A DNA stretch of 64,000 bases, taken from assembly GCA_025823825.1 (NCBI GenBank), contig GCA_025823825.1_4720.1; one strand, 5' to 3'. Made by a program: the position numbers and the translations under genes. The notes beneath the pieces are model-generated. The model had not been told where the DNA came from. It did not search any database and was given only the letters and a program-made list of their open reading frames with translations. Source of the stretch: a phage. Of this stretch, positions 16,064-57,117 are shown piece after piece (positions within the stretch are counted from its first letter, which is position 1; every line of letters begins with the position of its first letter).

Positions 16064-16084
16064 TACCCCCCCCCCTCGACGAAG
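16064..16084 (-). repeat. C10 homopolymer with flank TA-C10-TCGACGAAG (copy 1)
   Basis: Ten C at 16066-16075; same flanks as the C11 tract at 34212-34222. Confidence 0.7.
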
Positions 16085-16107: not shown

Positions 16108-17862
16108 TTATGCTGCTACATACCCAGGCCAACGTTCTCTTGGCCAGTTTGTTGCGCCCTGTCCAACGTTGTCCTTACCAGAAGTTACATTACTTACATC
16201 CCAACCACTAAGATCCTGGTTAAATGCGGTGTTGTTACGCATCATGAGGTCGATATTACGTAATGATTGGGTATTCCAGCCGGAAATGTCTTGGTTGAAT
16301 GCCGTGTTGTAAGCAAACATGTTAACAACGTTTTGTAATTTTGAAGTGTTCCAGCCGCTAATATCGCCATTGAACTGCATGTTCGAGAACATACTGCTAG
16401 CATCGATAAGACTATCTGTTTTCCAGTTAACCAGCTTGTTCTCATCAAGTGCGTTGCAACTACTGAACATGTAACTCATGTTGTTAACTTTGGATACATC
16501 CCATTTATCTAACCCGTTACCAACGAACTCGTAACAAGCTTGGAACATCCAGCTCATGTCGGTAACCTGGCACACATTCCATTTGCTAAAGTCGAGGTTG
16601 AGTTTTGCGCATCCGGAGAAAGTTTTATACATACTGGTGATACGACTAACATCCCATTCTTGAATGTTAGGATCATTAAGTATAGATAAGAATTGGAACA
16701 ATCCGTCTAACGACGTCCATTTCTCTGGAATACGGTTTGGTACTGTACGGAGCGATGAAAGGTTATTGGTTGACGGAGAGCGGAACATACCGTTATCCCA
16801 ATTTACGATTTCCGTAATGTTGTACCCACGGATCGTTTGGCGTCCATTACCATTATACACAGACCCTGTTGCAGTTATTGTATATTCGTTTGTATCAGCA
16901 TACGTATATTCAGCCTGTGTAGGCCACTCACCTATTACATCCCTATTCCCATCACCCCAGTCAATGGAAATATCTATCCAACCATCAAGATCTAGGGTAA
17001 CGGTCCCGCCATTGGTCTTCAGGATGTATTTACCTGCATTGTCGGTATAATAACAAACAATCATCGCACCGTACAGGTTACCAATTTGCCAATCATCCTT
17101 TTGAGTTACCGCGATTTGTGCTGTACCACGCTGTAAGAAAAGTACCGTACGGTTCTCGTCAGTCTGTAGTGCGGTTAGTGCTTGAGTCTTATCATCGTCG
17201 GTAATTTCACCGGCTTCCATTAAAGCACTTAACATTCTTTCGAAGTACTCGATAGGCAACTGAGGTCCTACCGACATATCAACTGATGGAACAGTGAGAT
17301 CATCCAATGCTGCTGCCGTTGCGAGGACTAATGATCCCTTGGCGGTGTCTGTTTCTTGGAGGTAACGCAGTCCCGTAATCTGGTACGCTTGAATGATTGT
17401 AATCAGATCCAGTGTATCGTTAATGACCTGTACTTGTAAATGTCCAGACCAAACATAGCTGCTTTCAGCAATCGGTAATTCGACCGACTGAATACCCGAC
17501 GTTTCAAAACTGATCTTCTTATTAAGATCGGCTTCCAGGAAATCAACAGCTAGGTCGAAATTTATACCGTACTTCTCAGCGATGGAATCTACAATGTTCC
17601 TGAAAGCAACATCGGTACTTACGATGAAACGTAACGGGATCCCGGTGAACGCGTTGGCAATATCTCGACGAACATACGTGAGCGACTGCTCGAAGAAATA
17701 AGGACTGTTATCTCCAGGTTTGATGGTTACCTGGCATACTTCAGGATGTTCAGCTGGAATGAAAGATTCGAATTTAACGTCGGTTTCCTTCAACGATAGC
17801 ATGTTCTTCCGGTTTACCAACGCCAGAAGATCAGCTTTCCACCCAGGATAAACTGTAGACAT
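16108..17862 (-). CDS. tail fibre-like protein with shared N-terminal module and C-terminal BspA-like (DUF285-type) repeats
   Basis: Start ATG 17862 (MSTVYPGWKADLLALVNRKN) with GGAG upstream; C-terminal repeats WDVSxVxxMxxMFxxxxxFNQDISGWN. Confidence 0.65.
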   Translation of the reverse strand: MSTVYPGWKADLLALVNRKNMLSLKETDVKFESFIPAEHPEVCQVTIKPGDNSPYFFEQSLTYVRRDIANAFTGIPLRFIVSTDVAFRNIVDSIAEKYGINFDLAVDFLEADLNKKISFETSGIQSVELPIAESSYVWSGHLQVQVINDTLDLITIIQAYQITGLRYLQETDTAKGSLVLATAAALDDLTVPSVDMSVGPQLPIEYFERMLSALMEAGEITDDDKTQALTALQTDENRTVLFLQRGTAQIAVTQKDDWQIGNLYGAMIVCYYTDNAGKYILKTNGGTVTLDLDGWIDISIDWGDGNRDVIGEWPTQAEYTYADTNEYTITATGSVYNGNGRQTIRGYNITEIVNWDNGMFRSPSTNNLSSLRTVPNRIPEKWTSLDGLFQFLSILNDPNIQEWDVSRITSMYKTFSGCAKLNLDFSKWNVCQVTDMSWMFQACYEFVGNGLDKWDVSKVNNMSYMFSSCNALDENKLVNWKTDSLIDASSMFSNMQFNGDISGWNTSKLQNVVNMFAYNTAFNQDISGWNTQSLRNIDLMMRNNTAFNQDLSGWDVSNVTSGKDNVGQGATNWPRERWPGYVAA

Positions 17863-18088
17863 AAGCACTCCAATCATGGGGGCGAACGCCCCCCATCAGT
17901 TAAATGATCGTTTACGTCGCGTAAGGGTAATATAATTGCTGTGAGCCATATCAGAAGTTCACAACATTCTGAATCATAAGGTTACGTCGTTGGAAACAAA
18001 CCGATACAGATTCTTCATAGAACATTGAGATGATGGAAACCTAATTCGTACCATGAAAGCCGCAATAAAAAAAAGAAAAATAGGAAAA

Positions 18089-33619: not shown

Positions 33620-33878
33620 TTACGCCAGGCGGTACCACAATACCGGTACGAATCACAGCAGCAACTTCCTGCATGCCCTTACCCTTCAACGCATAGGTTT
33701 CATGTACCACATTACGTCGAGTCGTTAATCCAACAAATTTACATACAACCATGTTGTTTTCTGAAAGATAAGCGGTGTCGAGTTCACCGTGCAACAATTC
33801 TTTTTCTTTGGTATCAATACCTAATAACGCAATTTGATAAGCAGAAAGTTTCCAATAACGCATAATCGTCCTATTCAT
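33570..33878 (-). CDS. hypothetical protein (102 aa)
   Basis: Minus-strand ORF overlapping both neighbours; start uncertain. Confidence 0.35.
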   Translation of the reverse strand: MNRTIMRYWKLSAYQIALLGIDTKEKELLHGELDTAYLSENNMVVCKFVGLTTRRNVVHETYALKGKGMQEVAAVIRTGIVVPPGVSDNLDEVLHGTRKTAR

Positions 33879-34698
33879 AAACTATCAAATATTCTGAAAC
33901 CAAGTTTCTTGTTTCTACTTTTGCCGAAATCGTTCTTCGTACAGTTACAGGGTACAATTTTGTCGCCGAACTATAAATCTCTTCAGTCAACGCACAAGCA
34001 CTGTTGCTAATGATTGTAGGAATTCCCCGCGAGCGCAAGTTGTCAGCCTTTTCTGCAAGATAACGATGATCGTCTAATGTAAACCCCTCTTGAGTATAGC
34101 CCGTAAACGATGCGGTGGGGGAAATGGGAATATAAGGAGGGTCGCAATAAACGACGTCACCCGGAACCACCTTTTCAAGATGCTTCTGGAACCCACCACT
34201 TACAATTTCTACCCCCCCCCCCTCGACGAAGGCAGCCTGAAGATGGTTCGCTGCCAGACGCAATTCCTGTTTCGGGAAATAGACGGTCTTATACCGCCCA
34301 TGCGCAACATTAAATAAACCATCACGATTATAACGACATAAGCCATTGAAACCGTAACGGTTTAAATACATGAAGCAAACTGCGCGTTCCCACGGATCTT
34401 CAGCGCGGTTAAAACGTTCACGTATCTCGTAGTAGCTTCTGACGTCGGTAGGATCCGTTTGAAAAAGACGTTCCACTTCTTCGATGAAAGATTCTGGACG
34501 CGCTAGCAACGCAGACCATACTGAGAGAATATCCTCATTCGCATCACCTATCGAATACGCTGGGTACTTAAGAGCAAGCGTAACAGCGCCGGAACCAACG
34601 AATGGTTCAACAAGACGCTTTCCTTTAGGTAACACTTTTTCAATCTCAGGGATAAGCCTGGTTTTGTTCCCAAGCCATTTAAGAAATGTTCTGCTCAT
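33871..34698 (-). CDS. dam: Dam-type DNA N6-adenine methyltransferase
   Basis: N-terminal FLKWLGNKTRL and EPFVGSGAV, catalytic motif VVYCDPPY, NRYGFNGLCRYN block; contains a G11 run encoding EGGGV. Confidence 0.85.
   Translation of the reverse strand: MSRTFLKWLGNKTRLIPEIEKVLPKGKRLVEPFVGSGAVTLALKYPAYSIGDANEDILSVWSALLARPESFIEEVERLFQTDPTDVRSYYEIRERFNRAEDPWERAVCFMYLNRYGFNGLCRYNRDGLFNVAHGRYKTVYFPKQELRLAANHLQAAFVEGGGVEIVSGGFQKHLEKVVPGDVVYCDPPYIPISPTASFTGYTQEGFTLDDHRYLAEKADNLRSRGIPTIISNSACALTEEIYSSATKLYPVTVRRTISAKVETRNLVSEYLIVYE
34210..34231 (-). repeat. C11 homopolymer with flank TA-C11-TCGACGAAG (copy 2), inside dam
   Basis: Eleven C at 34212-34222 on plus strand, G11 on the dam coding strand. 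Confidence 0.7.
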
Positions 34699-35113
34699 CG
34701 ATTGGCGTTCCGATAATGTTGATGACTATTTCCGTTCGAACCGGATTGGTCAGTACGGCCTGCATGCGTTCAAGCATTGTTGGGTTATCCGTAACCACCA
34801 CATCGGCGTAACACAACGGATGACTTTCGAATGCTTCGGTGTCACTTACTAACAGAACACCCATCACATTTACGTATTGCGGTATGCGTCCACGGATGCG
34901 TTGCCACATGTCTTGAGTAAGGTCTTCGTTTTCTAATGCCACCACGATGACAGGGCTGATATTTACCGGGAAACGCGGATGCACCGTGCGGCGAAAGGTC
35001 ACCCAGCTTTCGACGTGGGATAATGCAAGTTCGAGAGAACAGCACTTTGGAGAAATCTGTATGTTTATTTGCTGAATCAATGAAAGGGGGTTTTGTACAG
35101 TCGCTTCAGCCAT
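34679..35113 (-). CDS. hypothetical protein (144 aa)
   Basis: Minus-strand ORF; no motif recognised. Confidence 0.45.
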   Translation of the reverse strand: MAEATVQNPLSLIQQINIQISPKCCSLELALSHVESWVTFRRTVHPRFPVNISPVIVVALENEDLTQDMWQRIRGRIPQYVNVMGVLLVSDTEAFESHPLCYADVVVTDNPTMLERMQAVLTNPVRTEIVINIIGTPIDEQNIS

Positions 35114-53405: not shown

Positions 53406-53442
53406 CCTCCTCCCCAGGAAAGGTGTGGGGAGGAGTTTTTAT
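53406..53442 (+). promoter_or_regulatory. GC-rich stem-loop plus T5 upstream of the helicase gene (terminator/attenuator-like)
   Basis: CCTCCTCCCC...GGGGAGGAG followed by TTTTTAT on the plus strand, at the divergent switch region. Confidence 0.4.
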
Positions 53443-53470
53443 CATACATTCTATTAAATCGAGCGCGATT

Positions 53471-55552
53471 ATGTTGGATAGAATCAATCGTCTAATGAAC
53501 CGAATAACGGTTAAAAATCAGAGTAACAATACCGTGCATATCGGGGGTATCGATGCCTGGCGTCTTTCAGATGACATTCAGCGAATATGGGGTACCTCCC
53601 GATTTATGAAACATATGTTTCGTAATTTCTCTTCTAGTGGACTCAGCCTCCACAACTTTTACCTCCCCGATTTCGTTTATATTCTCGAGACGATCATCGA
53701 AGCAAAGAATACCCGCAGTAACAAACGCATGCTGAAACACCTTATTGAGGTACTGCTACAGGAAACCTGGTTGCAAAATACCACAATCGAGCAACCTGCA
53801 ATCCTCGATAAAGCACGCATGAACAAAATGCTAACGCTCTCTTTGTTCGATTATCAAGATGAGTTTATCGACATCTATAACCGTAACGTACCTAAATACC
53901 GACTGAAAGGATACGTGTGTGCGATGGGTGCTGGTGCGGGTAAAACAATCACCGCACTGGCATTAAGCTCCGCAATGAACGTCGATGTATTTGTGGTCTG
54001 CTGTCCTAAGAACACCATGCGTTCAGCATGGCAATCCGATGTAAACAAAGCCATCGTTGACCCTGCAACAGAAACCGCGTTCTGGTCAGATACGATGCCA
54101 CCATCACAGCTGCAGAAAAGCGATAAGTACTATTTTCTGCATTATGAATCGATGGGTTTATTAAACGATGTAATGATCAAGCATAAACGCACAGCGAAGC
54201 GCGTGTTGATCGTGGTTGATGAAAGCCATAACTTCAACGACAAGAACAGTCAACGTTCCCAACGACTGGTTGATCTCGTACAGACGATGCGTCAGACCAT
54301 GAATGCGGATGTGCACGTCTTGTTTATGTCAGGTACACCTGTTAAACAAATGGGTTCTGAGATGATCCCATGTTTAGGTTGTATCGACCCGATGTTCCAA
54401 GGACAGGTGGTCGATAGCTTCAAAGCGATTTACGGTTTAACCAGCAGTCGCGCTAACGATATCCTCAGACATCGTCTTGGGTTCATGATGCATGTCGTAC
54501 CTAAAGAGGCTTACCGTAAAACCCGTCCGGAAGTTCAGGATGTTTACGTGAAGCTCCCTAACGGTAGCGATTATACCATCTCAAGTATCCGCGACGACAT
54601 GGCGATATTTGTACGCGATCGGGCGAAGTATTACAAGGATAACTGGGGACACTACAGAAAGATTTTTGATGACGCCTTGGACTACTATCGTAAGACTATT
54701 CGTACCGACGGAGAACGTAAAGAGCTATCTCGATACGAATCGATTGTTGCTCGTTTCCAGAAAGGTTACGACCCCGTCAGAGACAAAGAAGATGCGATGT
54801 TCTGCAACGCGTTTGAAAAACGTTCCATCATGCCGGTTCTTCCTTCTGATTTAAGGATTGCTTTCAAAGACGCTAAGAGTGTCATCAAGTACGTTGGGTT
54901 GAAAATTCAGGGTGAGGCGTTGGCCCGTGTTCTCGGTGCAGCCCGCATTCGGTGTCATGTCGATATGGTGGAGTACATCGACTTCGAAGGGTATATCAAC
55001 AACGCTGAAGCCAAGGTGTTGATCTTCACGTCGTACGTTCAGGTGGTTGAGCGTGTCGACAACATGCTTCGTGATGCGGGTTTCTTACCGGAACCCATTT
55101 ACGGGAAGACCAACAAAAACATCAACCAAATACTTGCTCGTTTACGCGACGATCCCGACAGCGGCCCCGCTATCGCAACATTTGATAGCTTAGCTGAAGG
55201 GGTTCCGATGTTGATGTGTAACGTGGGTCTCTTCTTGAACAACCCATGGCGTTCATCCGATGAAATCCAAGCCATCAGCCGTCTCGATCGTGTAGGGCAA
55301 ACGCAACCGGTTCGGATTTATCGTTTCATGTTAGATACGGGAAGCGAGGGTAACGTTTCTACACGTAGCCACGAAATCATGGAGTTAAGTCGGCAGCTTG
55401 TTGAAGAAATCACGGGTGTCAAATACGTGGTGAACAAGCAAGACGATGTTAACTTGCAAGAAACGTTGGCGATGGAAGGATACGATCAATACGTTACCGT
55501 AAACACCACGGAATACGATATTAAACCACGACCTGCGTTCTTGGAATGGTGA
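53471..55552 (+). CDS. SNF2-like (SF2) helicase
   Basis: Walker A-like GAGAGKT, DExH-like VVDESHNF, SGTP motif III, C-terminal QAISRLDRVGQ signature; start set at first ATG. Confidence 0.75.
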   Translation: MLDRINRLMNRITVKNQSNNTVHIGGIDAWRLSDDIQRIWGTSRFMKHMFRNFSSSGLSLHNFYLPDFVYILETIIEAKNTRSNKRMLKHLIEVLLQETWLQNTTIEQPAILDKARMNKMLTLSLFDYQDEFIDIYNRNVPKYRLKGYVCAMGAGAGKTITALALSSAMNVDVFVVCCPKNTMRSAWQSDVNKAIVDPATETAFWSDTMPPSQLQKSDKYYFLHYESMGLLNDVMIKHKRTAKRVLIVVDESHNFNDKNSQRSQRLVDLVQTMRQTMNADVHVLFMSGTPVKQMGSEMIPCLGCIDPMFQGQVVDSFKAIYGLTSSRANDILRHRLGFMMHVVPKEAYRKTRPEVQDVYVKLPNGSDYTISSIRDDMAIFVRDRAKYYKDNWGHYRKIFDDALDYYRKTIRTDGERKELSRYESIVARFQKGYDPVRDKEDAMFCNAFEKRSIMPVLPSDLRIAFKDAKSVIKYVGLKIQGEALARVLGAARIRCHVDMVEYIDFEGYINNAEAKVLIFTSYVQVVERVDNMLRDAGFLPEPIYGKTNKNINQILARLRDDPDSGPAIATFDSLAEGVPMLMCNVGLFLNNPWRSSDEIQAISRLDRVGQTQPVRIYRFMLDTGSEGNVSTRSHEIMELSRQLVEEITGVKYVVNKQDDVNLQETLAMEGYDQYVTVNTTEYDIKPRPAFLEW

Positions 55553-55647: not shown

Positions 55648-57102
55648 ATGAAACTCAAACAAAGCTGGAAAGACGAACTTCTCGCGTTAGTAAACAACAA
55701 AAACAGTTTACAGCTGACATTAGACGACGTAAAATTTGAACTAACTGAACCGGTAAGCGAAGTGCCCGGAACAGTCGTCGTTACGATCAAACCGAACGAT
55801 GATAGCCGTTACTTTAACGAGCAGTCTCTGACCTACATCCGTCGAGACATCGCTAAAAACTTCACCGGGATCCCGTTACGTGTTATCGTTAAAAATGATA
55901 CCGTCGTAAGGGATATCATCAATACGATTGCTGAACGTTACGGATTGGTATTTGACACAACCGTTGACTTCCTCGAATCAGAGCTGAATAAGCAGATTAC
56001 GTTCGAAGACACCGGTATTAAAGACATTACGGTTCCGGTTGCAAACACGTCTTATGTTTGGGCTGGTAATCTTCAGTTCAATATCGCTAACGATACGTTA
56101 AGCTTGATTACGATCATCAAGGAAACCAATCTTACGAATCTGGTTTATCTGGATGGCGTTGAAGCTGACACAACCGGATCGTTATTATTAGCAACGGCCT
56201 CGATTATCGACGATAACGGAAATACCGAAACAACTGAAGGTGTCCTTGATGCCGAGTACTTCCAGAATGTCCTGAATGTCATGGTTCGTTATGGTGATAT
56301 TACCAGCGAACAAATGCAACAAGCAATGCAGACAATTAACCAAAACGAAGACGTTCGTGAAGTGGAGGTTAAGTCATACGGCGACTCTGAGCTGTTGGTA
56401 ACCACAAAGAAAGATTGGGCTATCGGTAACCTTAAGGGCGCTATGGCAGTTGTTCGCAACGCTCAACCGAAACCAATTCAGTACATTCTCAAAACGAATG
56501 GCGGCTCCGTTACACTAGCATTGGACGGTTGGACAAATATTTCCATCGATTGGGGTGATGGGAATAAAGCAACATTACCAGGCGGACAAACTCGCGGATT
56601 CCACGAATACAGTGACGGTACAGAACGTACGATTGTAGCTACTGGTGTCCTCTCAAACCCTGAAGCACCAACACAGACACAAACCATCAGCGGCGATAAC
56701 ATCACTGAAATCGTTGACTGGAACAACGGATTACCGCAGGCTGTACAATTAACGGGATTAACCAGTTTGATTAAGGTTCCCGATTATATCCCGTCATACT
56801 GGACAACGTTGGAAAGTTTGTTCGAGAGCTGCTCATCGATAAACGACGTAAACATCACGAAATGGAATACCGGTAACGTCACATCAATGAAGAATTTGTT
56901 CTTTGGCTGTAACGTCTTCAACCAACCGATCATCGTATGGGATGTTACCCATGTAACAAATATCGACAATATGTTCTCGGGATGTTCGGCGTTCAACCAG
57001 GATCTAAGGATGTGGTCATTCCCAGCGGATACTTCCCGCAACAACTACGATAACGGTGCTACAGCCTGGCGGTCAGAGTATCGTCCAAGCTTCGATTTGT
57101 AA
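55648..57102 (+). CDS. tail fibre-like protein with shared N-terminal module and C-terminal BspA-like repeats (remote, opposite-strand paralogue)
   Basis: N-terminus MKLKQSWKDELLALVNNKNSLQLTLDDVKF... paralogous to 16108..17862; C-terminal ...VFNQPIIVWDVTHVTNIDNMFSGCSAFNQDL. Confidence 0.65.
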   Translation: MKLKQSWKDELLALVNNKNSLQLTLDDVKFELTEPVSEVPGTVVVTIKPNDDSRYFNEQSLTYIRRDIAKNFTGIPLRVIVKNDTVVRDIINTIAERYGLVFDTTVDFLESELNKQITFEDTGIKDITVPVANTSYVWAGNLQFNIANDTLSLITIIKETNLTNLVYLDGVEADTTGSLLLATASIIDDNGNTETTEGVLDAEYFQNVLNVMVRYGDITSEQMQQAMQTINQNEDVREVEVKSYGDSELLVTTKKDWAIGNLKGAMAVVRNAQPKPIQYILKTNGGSVTLALDGWTNISIDWGDGNKATLPGGQTRGFHEYSDGTERTIVATGVLSNPEAPTQTQTISGDNITEIVDWNNGLPQAVQLTGLTSLIKVPDYIPSYWTTLESLFESCSSINDVNITKWNTGNVTSMKNLFFGCNVFNQPIIVWDVTHVTNIDNMFSGCSAFNQDLRMWSFPADTSRNNYDNGATAWRSEYRPSFDL

Positions 57103-57117
57103 AAAAAAAAAAAAAAA
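57101..57117 (+). repeat. A17 homopolymer starting within the stop codon of 55648..57102
   Basis: Seventeen consecutive A; reads as T17 on the minus strand directly after the stem-loop. Confidence 0.8.

Follow-up and report, generated by a model that had tools for sequence, protein, structure and literature searches.

The subject of this study is a stretch of phage DNA of 64,000 nucleotides (nt), referred to here as the window, and in particular a gene on its minus strand for a Dam-like adenine methyltransferase, which carries a run of eleven G residues (G11) in its coding strand. The data presented here suggest that this run is very probably a genuine hypermutable simple-sequence repeat that toggles an accessory dam gene in Goslar-like jumbo phages, and that the carriers of this switchable dam are nucleus-forming jumbo phages of Escherichia coli, Salmonella and Shigella. 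A first-pass annotation of the window had named the gene as a candidate for phase variation, and this proposal is now supported at the genotype level by natural G10 to G13 forms of the tract, by near-isogenic pairs of genomes, by the concentration of frameshifts in uninterrupted tracts and by the purifying selection that acts on the gene. Alleles are called ON when the reading frame is complete and OFF when the tract puts it out of frame. The parts of the gene on which the argument depends are the following, in window coordinates.

33871..34698, minus strand: dam open reading frame (ORF), 275 amino acids (aa), a D12-class N6-adenine DNA methyltransferase (PF02086, 2G1P, AlphaFold model AF2)
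34588..34602, minus strand: motif I, FVGSG, binding S-adenosylmethionine (AdoMet), residues 33-37; kept in truncated OFF products
34327..34347, minus strand: DNA-recognition loop NGLCRYN, residues 118-124; identical to N120-N126 of E. coli Dam
34212..34222, minus strand: G11 homopolymer (C11 on the plus strand), end of E159 and G160-G162; the putative hypermutable repeat
34209..34211, minus strand: TAG directly after the tract; stop used by G10 and G13 (162- and 163-aa products)
34175..34177, minus strand: TGA 12 codons on; stop used by G12 and G9 (174- and 173-aa products)
34132..34143, minus strand: catalytic motif IV, DPPY, residues 186-189; missing from every out-of-frame variant

The tract reads TAC(11)TCGACG on the plus strand and GAG GGG GGG GGG GTA on the coding strand, which corresponds to E159, G160, G161, G162 and V163, and DPPY lies 24 codons downstream of it. 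The run itself, its coordinates, its EGGGV codons and its place upstream of VVYCDPPY had all been described correctly in the first-pass annotation, as had the prediction that gain or loss of one nucleotide would truncate the enzyme before its active site. When the window gene was edited in silico, G10 gave a protein ending in EGGG* (162 aa) and G12 gave a protein of 174 aa, both of which stop before DPPY. In the G9, G10, G12 and G13 products motif I is kept and the catalytic DPPY half is lost. The gene therefore has the first property of a contingency locus, a long homopolymer within an ORF (here at codons 159-162) in which changes of one nucleotide are truncating. In the AlphaFold model of the window Dam (predicted local distance difference test score, pLDDT, of 84), E159-G162 form the turn that leads from helix 143-158 into strand 162-166, with the DPPY strand two elements further on, and the tract sits in a stretch of 7 aa that is inserted with respect to E. 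coli Dam. Natural variants of the turn read EGEGV, EGKGV, EGRGV and ERGGV, which suggests that it tolerates changes to E, K and R.

The Dam-like identity first given to the gene is borne out by profile and structure comparisons. The protein matches Pfam PF02086 over the whole profile (positions 1-253 of 253) with 204.9 bits, where the curated cut-off is 22 (E=2e-60), and it matches E. coli Dam (2G1P) over residues 2-274 with 45% full-length identity (E=1e-68). The full-length profile match, the FxGxG motif (FVGSG) and DPPY together place it in the D12 class. The residues of E. coli Dam that contact GATC are, as Horton et al. reportedly found in 2006, K9, N120, L122, R124 and P134, and the equivalents of the K, N, L and R residues are kept in the window Dam (FLKW... 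and NGLCRYN). The 64-kb window contains 292 GATC sites (observed/expected 0.68), which is ample substrate for a Dam enzyme. GATC is also the most under-represented palindromic 4-mer of the window, at a level like that of CTAG and TATA.

The G11 tract is not a product of chance, as is evident from the run-length distribution, the choice of Gly codons and a set of 66 other phage dam genes. Runs of G or C in the window number 115 at length 4, 24 at length 5 and 1 at length 6, and beyond that there are one C10 and one C11. GGG is the rarest Gly codon (15%), and the codons used for the tract peptide have a combined probability, P(GGG)^3 x P(GAG|Glu), of ~0.001. A homopolymer longer than 7 was absent from 66 of the 66 distant phage dam genes examined in IMG/VR, and Tandem Repeats Finder detected no further repeat arrays in the window.

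Length variation of the tract was found in natural sequences. At the compared loci the flanks are identical to those of the window (…GCTGCCTT CGTCGA-Gn-TAG AAATTGTAAGTG), and three lengths were read directly from DNA.

G10: loci L028 and L030; called product 162 aa + 99 aa
G11: the window, L011-L020, L024, L025 and L032; called product 275 aa
G12: L023, L027 and L029; called product 174 aa

Sequencing runs behind these assemblies include SRR16035854 and SRR5814921 for G11, SRR15841266 for G10 and ERR11836920 for G12, and among the NCBI assemblies GCA_020241125.1 has G11 while GCA_020241865.1 and GCA_020395325.1 have G12. Two more lengths, G13 and G9, were deduced from protein tails. The G10 edit of the window gene is residue for residue the protein P0144 (7 contigs), the G12 edit is exactly P0135 (7 contigs, NCBI E. 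coli O157) and the G13 edit is exactly P0147 (163 aa; 4 contigs). The G12 loci L023 and L029 show 0 differences from the window in the remaining 817 nt of dam, and when they were compared with the G11 locus L013 over 3,494 nt only 1 mismatch and the tract itself differed. The same allele with G11 was present in at least 15 independent assemblies, and two pairs made up of an NCBI and a Logan assembly each (L013 and L015, L012 and L017) were identical over 20.8 kb, G11 calls included. Near-identical genomes thus differ in repeat length both in their DNA (G10, G11 and G12) and in the proteins that match the edited forms, as is expected of a contingency locus.

Additionally, OFF alleles were sampled through the neighbouring 97-aa gene as an anchor, which is independent of dam. 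The 10 places obtained in this way had G11 (3), G12 (3), G10 (2) or an interrupted tract in frame (2), and uninterrupted tracts were out of frame in 5 of 8. Several NCBI assemblies break at the tract and give partial Dam proteins that border it: EDV8486531.1, EKA3416424.1, ECE9610371.1 and EKA3416462.1 (P0139, P0140, P0141 and P0142, respectively). The N-terminal partial stops 4 residues before E159 and the C-terminal partial begins 5 residues past G162. P0140 and P0142, both labelled as Shigella flexneri assemblies, probably come from one assembly, as judged by their adjacent accession numbers. One of the contigs that break at the tract is 243 kb long, a whole-phage contig with its end at the tract. 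These breaks fit the presence of mixed lengths in the reads, which they are only suggestive of. A split or 'partial' dam, or a contig break at this site, should not be taken for a pseudogene or an error until the reads have been checked.

Interrupted alleles provide a built-in control for the dam switch. In other lineages the tract retains 11 nt with G-to-A interruptions, in the forms G6AG4, G5AG5, G4AAG5 and GGGAGGAGGGG, and probably also G4AG6; runs ERR11438248 and SRR32103871 are examples of samples with G5AG5 or G6AG4. Among the matches listed, 39 of 55 contigs with uninterrupted-type alleles were OFF and 16 were ON, while 2 of 68 contigs with interrupted alleles were OFF and 66 were ON (Fisher test on contigs, p=9e-17; on distinct protein forms, p=5e-4), though these counts are partial and non-independent. 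This contrast shows that the uninterrupted run is the cause of the frameshifts, and such dependence on an intact repeat is a further property of contingency loci. The lineage with G6AG5 (L002, L003) has 12 nt and is fixed out of frame with its tract interrupted.

The rest of the gene is maintained. The ratio of nonsynonymous to synonymous substitution rates (dN/dS) is ~0.1 on either side of the tract, which suggests that the OFF states are young. Downstream of the tract dN/dS against the window allele is 0.09-0.16, with the OFF alleles L028, L030 and L002 included, and this points to long-term translation of the full ORF. When the tract was reset to 11, a complete ORF was obtained in every OFF allele, and no other lesions were found. 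The ORF is therefore maintained apart from its tract, and OFF alleles are repairable, as contingency loci are expected to be. The uninterrupted run has also been kept in diverged alleles (G11 in L006 at ~9% nt divergence, G9 in L010 at 77% aa identity). Frequent OFF states in a gene that has long been under purifying selection are what marks a contingency locus, as opposed to a decaying pseudogene.

As a separate observation, the dam alleles of L021, L026, L028, L030 and L031 are mosaic when compared with window positions 33871-34260, with a near-identical 5' half and a 3' half that is 10-15% divergent. The divergent parts extend from about gene nt 432, 512 or 582 to 798, and their breakpoints are unlike, which suggests frequent recombination within the gene. 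The tract was considered as the junction of this recombination. However, the breakpoints (~432, 512 and 582) differ from one another and the tract lies at gene nt 477-487, so no specific link is claimed.

On both sides of dam the sequence shares 93-95% identity with Escherichia phage vB_EcoM_Goslar (Goslarvirus), and the window belongs by its sequence to the Goslar-like jumbo phages, which form a nucleus. The gene lies in a segment that Goslar lacks.

33864..34713, no strand assigned: 850-nt dam-carrying segment; replaces 33 nt of Goslar between the homologs of Goslar_00124 and Goslar_00125

The counterpart in Goslar is the 33 nt at MK327938 125431-125463, where dam has no equivalent. In the window dam overlaps or abuts its two conserved small neighbour genes, which makes it a clean, gene-sized presence/absence polymorphism within Goslarvirus, and on this comparison dam is accessory in the genus. 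Close Dam relatives (at least 77% identity) were found exclusively on ~240-kb contigs with Goslar-like synteny. Some of these contigs are from metagenomes (Logan, ENA and JGI), and others belong to NCBI assemblies that bear the label E. coli, Salmonella or Shigella. Megablast of dam against complete E. coli genomes and PLSDB plasmids gave no match, and an exact-pattern scan for the tract and its flanks gave no match in IMG/VR or GTDB species genomes. No Dam closer than 44% identity to the window Dam was found in IMG/VR, which includes Goslar itself and one other Goslar-like contig, and none closer than 44.5% in the INPHARED phage collection. Goslarvirus has been enlarged from 1 to 237 genomes (PMC12768965), and its members are nucleus-forming Chimalliviridae counted among the 'persistent virulent phages' (10.1101/2024.12.31.630880). 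Goslar-like Chimalliviridae are known to be persistent in clinical isolates of E. coli, Salmonella and Shigella, and the occurrence of dam agrees with the reports of these phages as common passengers of bacterial isolate assemblies (PMC12768965; 10.1101/2024.12.31.630880). Neither of these two studies mentions a methyltransferase or a homopolymer, and no earlier mention of the dam tract was found in the Goslar and Goslarvirus literature on either subject.

The proposed model is that slipped-strand mispairing during phage DNA replication would change the length of the tract. Such changes would be reversible and frequent, so that a phage population would be a mixture of Dam-ON and Dam-OFF genomes, with the ON genomes yielding GATC-methylated DNA. 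Methylation by the ON form could be of particular importance if the DNA inside the phage nucleus is out of reach of host Dam. It is possible, at somewhat less than an even chance, that the switch has been selected as a form of bet-hedging.

Several points weigh against the model of a dam switch. Dam activity and GATC specificity of the phage enzyme are predictions from sequence, and the equivalent of P134 of E. coli Dam is Ala in the window Dam (FNVAHGRYK). The tract lengths are known from assembled contigs, which leaves heterogeneity within samples and reversibility as predictions. The ON/OFF contig counts are non-independent samples, in which cluster 1 is represented by 15 of its 121 members, and ON proteins with EGGGV may hide G6AG4 instead of a pure G11. 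The irregular tails EGVGG* and EGRGWGG* resemble poly-G read errors of low-coverage assemblies. Goslar is without dam, and with hosts (E. coli and Salmonella) that are Dam+ in their own right no obvious defence trade-off is known for a phage dam. Also, a fraction of 0.29 of the uninterrupted alleles is ON (among the matches listed), which is like the 1/3 expected of random lengths and suggests that short-term selection on Dam is weak in the sampled populations.

The last of these points leads to the strongest alternative, in which the tract is a hot spot of neutral mutation, selection plays no part in the ON and OFF states, and the accessory gene is dispensable and is either tolerated or being lost. 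We consider this a possibility to be taken seriously, if probably not the case. An ON fraction indistinguishable from 1/3, the Dam+ hosts, the fixation of the G6AG5 lineage out of frame and the lack of a close dam relative in Goslar and IMG/VR would all suit it. However, a dN/dS of ~0.1 downstream of the tract reflects long-term translation of the full ORF, and the OFF alleles are without secondary lesions. The uninterrupted tract has survived 9-25% divergence although a single G-to-A change would stabilise the gene, and the rarest Gly codon is used three times in it.

At the other extreme is a fully adaptive, epigenetic form of bet-hedging, in which the nucleus shuts out host Dam, the phage dam sets the GATC methylation of the progeny, and the tract has been copied by gene conversion from dam to 16064-16084. 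In this extended form the model is unlikely. A cytoplasmic mCherry marker is kept out of the Goslar phage nucleus, and if the nucleus excludes host Dam too, the phage gene alone would determine the methylation of progeny DNA. If the model is true, each burst would be a mixture of genomes with and without methylation, which would suit hosts whose defences are sensitive to methylation or dependent on it, or else lytic as opposed to persistent (carrier-state) infection, and the tract with its flanks would be spread by short-patch gene conversion, seeding further hypermutable sites.

The suspicion of gene conversion comes from a second copy of the tract in the window.

16064..16084, minus strand: second copy of the tract and its flanks, TA-C10-TCGACGAAG on the plus strand; 21-nt identity, 0 expected by chance

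Its C10 (16066-16075) is the sole other long G/C run of the window, and its flanks are those of the dam tract, TA-Cn-TCGACGAAG. The copy is in an intergenic region, past the stop of a DUF7941/DUF285 gene (16108-17877, minus strand) and ahead of a terminator-like hairpin. Relatives of this site, which were obtained by a metagenome pattern scan, show that in Goslar and in five further relatives the site holds an interrupted sequence of equal length, gCCCCtCtaCCCCGACaAAG or a close variant, whereas C10 is present in the window and L038 and C11 in L040. Six clustered substitutions separate the two types, all towards the dam sequence, which suggests short-patch gene conversion from dam to this site.

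These observations also raise the possibility that the tract and its flanks (CTTCGTCGA-G10/11-TA) are themselves the signal, a protein-binding or RNA element or a site of recombination or conversion that lies in dam. The 21-nt identity would be in line with this, as would the dam-ward direction of the six substitutions in the window, L038 and L040 relative to the Goslar type, the variability of the second tract (C10 or C11) and the poly-G on the transcribed strand that both copies have in common. However, the flanks in dam differ by allele (CGACGA, CACCGA, AGTCGA and CGTTGA) while the position of the tract is constant, the tract is missing from the 16064-16084 site in most Goslar-like genomes, and a search of the window that allowed as many as 3 mismatches gave no third copy. 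This reading is improbable.

A similarly low probability is given to recoding, in which slippage of the RNA polymerase or frameshifting by ribosomes at the G run would buffer the frame or yield two products. Transcriptional slippage is possible on long homopolymers, and a near-neutral ON fraction would suit such buffering. However, slippage is best documented on A/T runs, the alternative frames close after 0 or 12 codons, and there is neither a conserved extension nor a second product. Programmed recoding was rejected as the main explanation on the grounds that the -1 frame stops at once (TAG) and the +1 frame after 12 codons (TGA); these frames are dead ends, so recoding is not the design of the locus.

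Least probable is a sequencing or assembly artefact, with a single true length and G10, G12 and G13 as Illumina or assembler homopolymer errors: poly-G runs are error-prone, contigs break at the tract and the low-coverage Logan/ENA members P0132, P0133 and P0152 have irregular tails, but G10, G12 and G13 are each found in 4-7 contigs of differing source and assembler, out-of-frame calls are about as common as in-frame calls and not rare, the G-to-A interruptions at four positions, all of 11 nt, are evolutionary events and not read errors, and the paired NCBI and Logan assemblies agree over the tract. The homopolymer miscall that the first-pass annotation had kept as its alternative is thus very unlikely, all the more so with G11 in that many independent assemblies.

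Some observations made elsewhere in the sequences are added here. A run of A17 at 57101-57117 starts within the TAA that ends a DUF7941/DUF285 (BspA-like) paralog (55648-57102, plus strand), and a conserved hairpin comes next. The run at this position is A11 in Goslar, so this poly-A run is also length-variable. The two non-coding homopolymers (16066-16075 and 57101-57117) are both located just 3' of DUF285 paralogs. Directly upstream of the plus-strand DUF285 gene is a gene for a 709-aa helicase of the SNF2/ResIII/DEAD type (53423-55552, plus strand), one of the few plus-strand genes in a window where 56 of 61 long ORFs are on the minus strand. In one relative (L019, positions 1-2800; Logan SRR31936954) thymidylate synthase is split into parts of 249 aa and 99 aa by an ORF for a GIY-YIG/NUMOD3/I-TevI-like homing endonuclease, which looks like an intron or an intein-less insertion; other relatives are without it.

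With respect to known systems, the orphan Dams of phages (T4, P1 and T1-like) and E. coli Dam have the same fold and the same FxGxG, NGLCRYN and DPPY motifs as the window Dam, and in the comparison with E. coli Dam the 7-aa insertion at the tract belongs to the window Dam. Switching of methyltransferases is well known in bacteria, where the phasevarion mod genes of Haemophilus and Neisseria are phase-variable methyltransferases. These bacterial enzymes are cellular, are usually parts of restriction-modification systems and control regulons, whereas the enzyme described here is an orphan Dam of a lytic or persistent phage, without a known regulon. A cellular analogue of the dam switch is the polyG tract of the Type IIG gene cj0031 of C. 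jejuni, in which a change of repeat length in a methyltransferase ORF toggles methylation of a motif (PMC4889913).

Among phages, a polyG tract in a methylase gene of Bordetella phage BPP-1 is mentioned in the preprint 10.1101/2025.10.21.683753 as reportedly noted but unstudied. BPP-1 is a temperate podovirus, and its methylase is of a class unlike the window Dam. The next closest case after T2, which is discussed below, is that of the Fletchervirus phages of Campylobacter (Sorensen et al. 2021, Cell Rep 35:109214), which reportedly have G7-G11 tracts in their ORFs that give rise to ON and OFF subpopulations of progeny. Those tracts are in genes for receptor-binding proteins and alter host range, and the Campylobacter host itself switches by polyG, whereas the tract described here is in a DNA methyltransferase gene of an enterobacterial phage.

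The closest case is the agt contingency locus of the virulent coliphage T2 (Gomez, Barrick & Waters, 10.1101/2025.10.21.683753), in which slippage of one nucleotide in an A run gives null alleles that revert ~1000-fold faster than a single-nucleotide polymorphism. Common to both systems are a homopolymer inside a DNA-modification gene and slippage by one nucleotide. However, the T2 gene has A runs of ~9 nt and encodes an alpha-glucosyltransferase, while the window phage has G11 in a Dam-family methyltransferase gene and is a nucleus-forming jumbo phage. The T2 authors propose bet-hedging between two opposing restriction systems, TgvAB and McrBC; a defence trade-off of this kind is proposed for agt, and none has been identified for the phage dam. 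The evidence also differs, as it consists of laboratory reversion assays for agt and of natural polymorphism in public assemblies for dam. Contingency loci are thus already known as a kind, and phage examples have been described experimentally only in that 2025 preprint on T-even phages; what is new here is the gene (dam), the enterobacterial nucleus-forming jumbo phage that carries it and the evidence from natural populations. The locus also makes it possible to test whether host Dam has access to DNA in the phage nucleus, and whether adenine methylation makes a difference to a phage that is already shielded from restriction. Next to the T-even phages, the dam locus stands as an independent example from natural populations, in which dozens of public assemblies of one lineage show both ON and OFF states.

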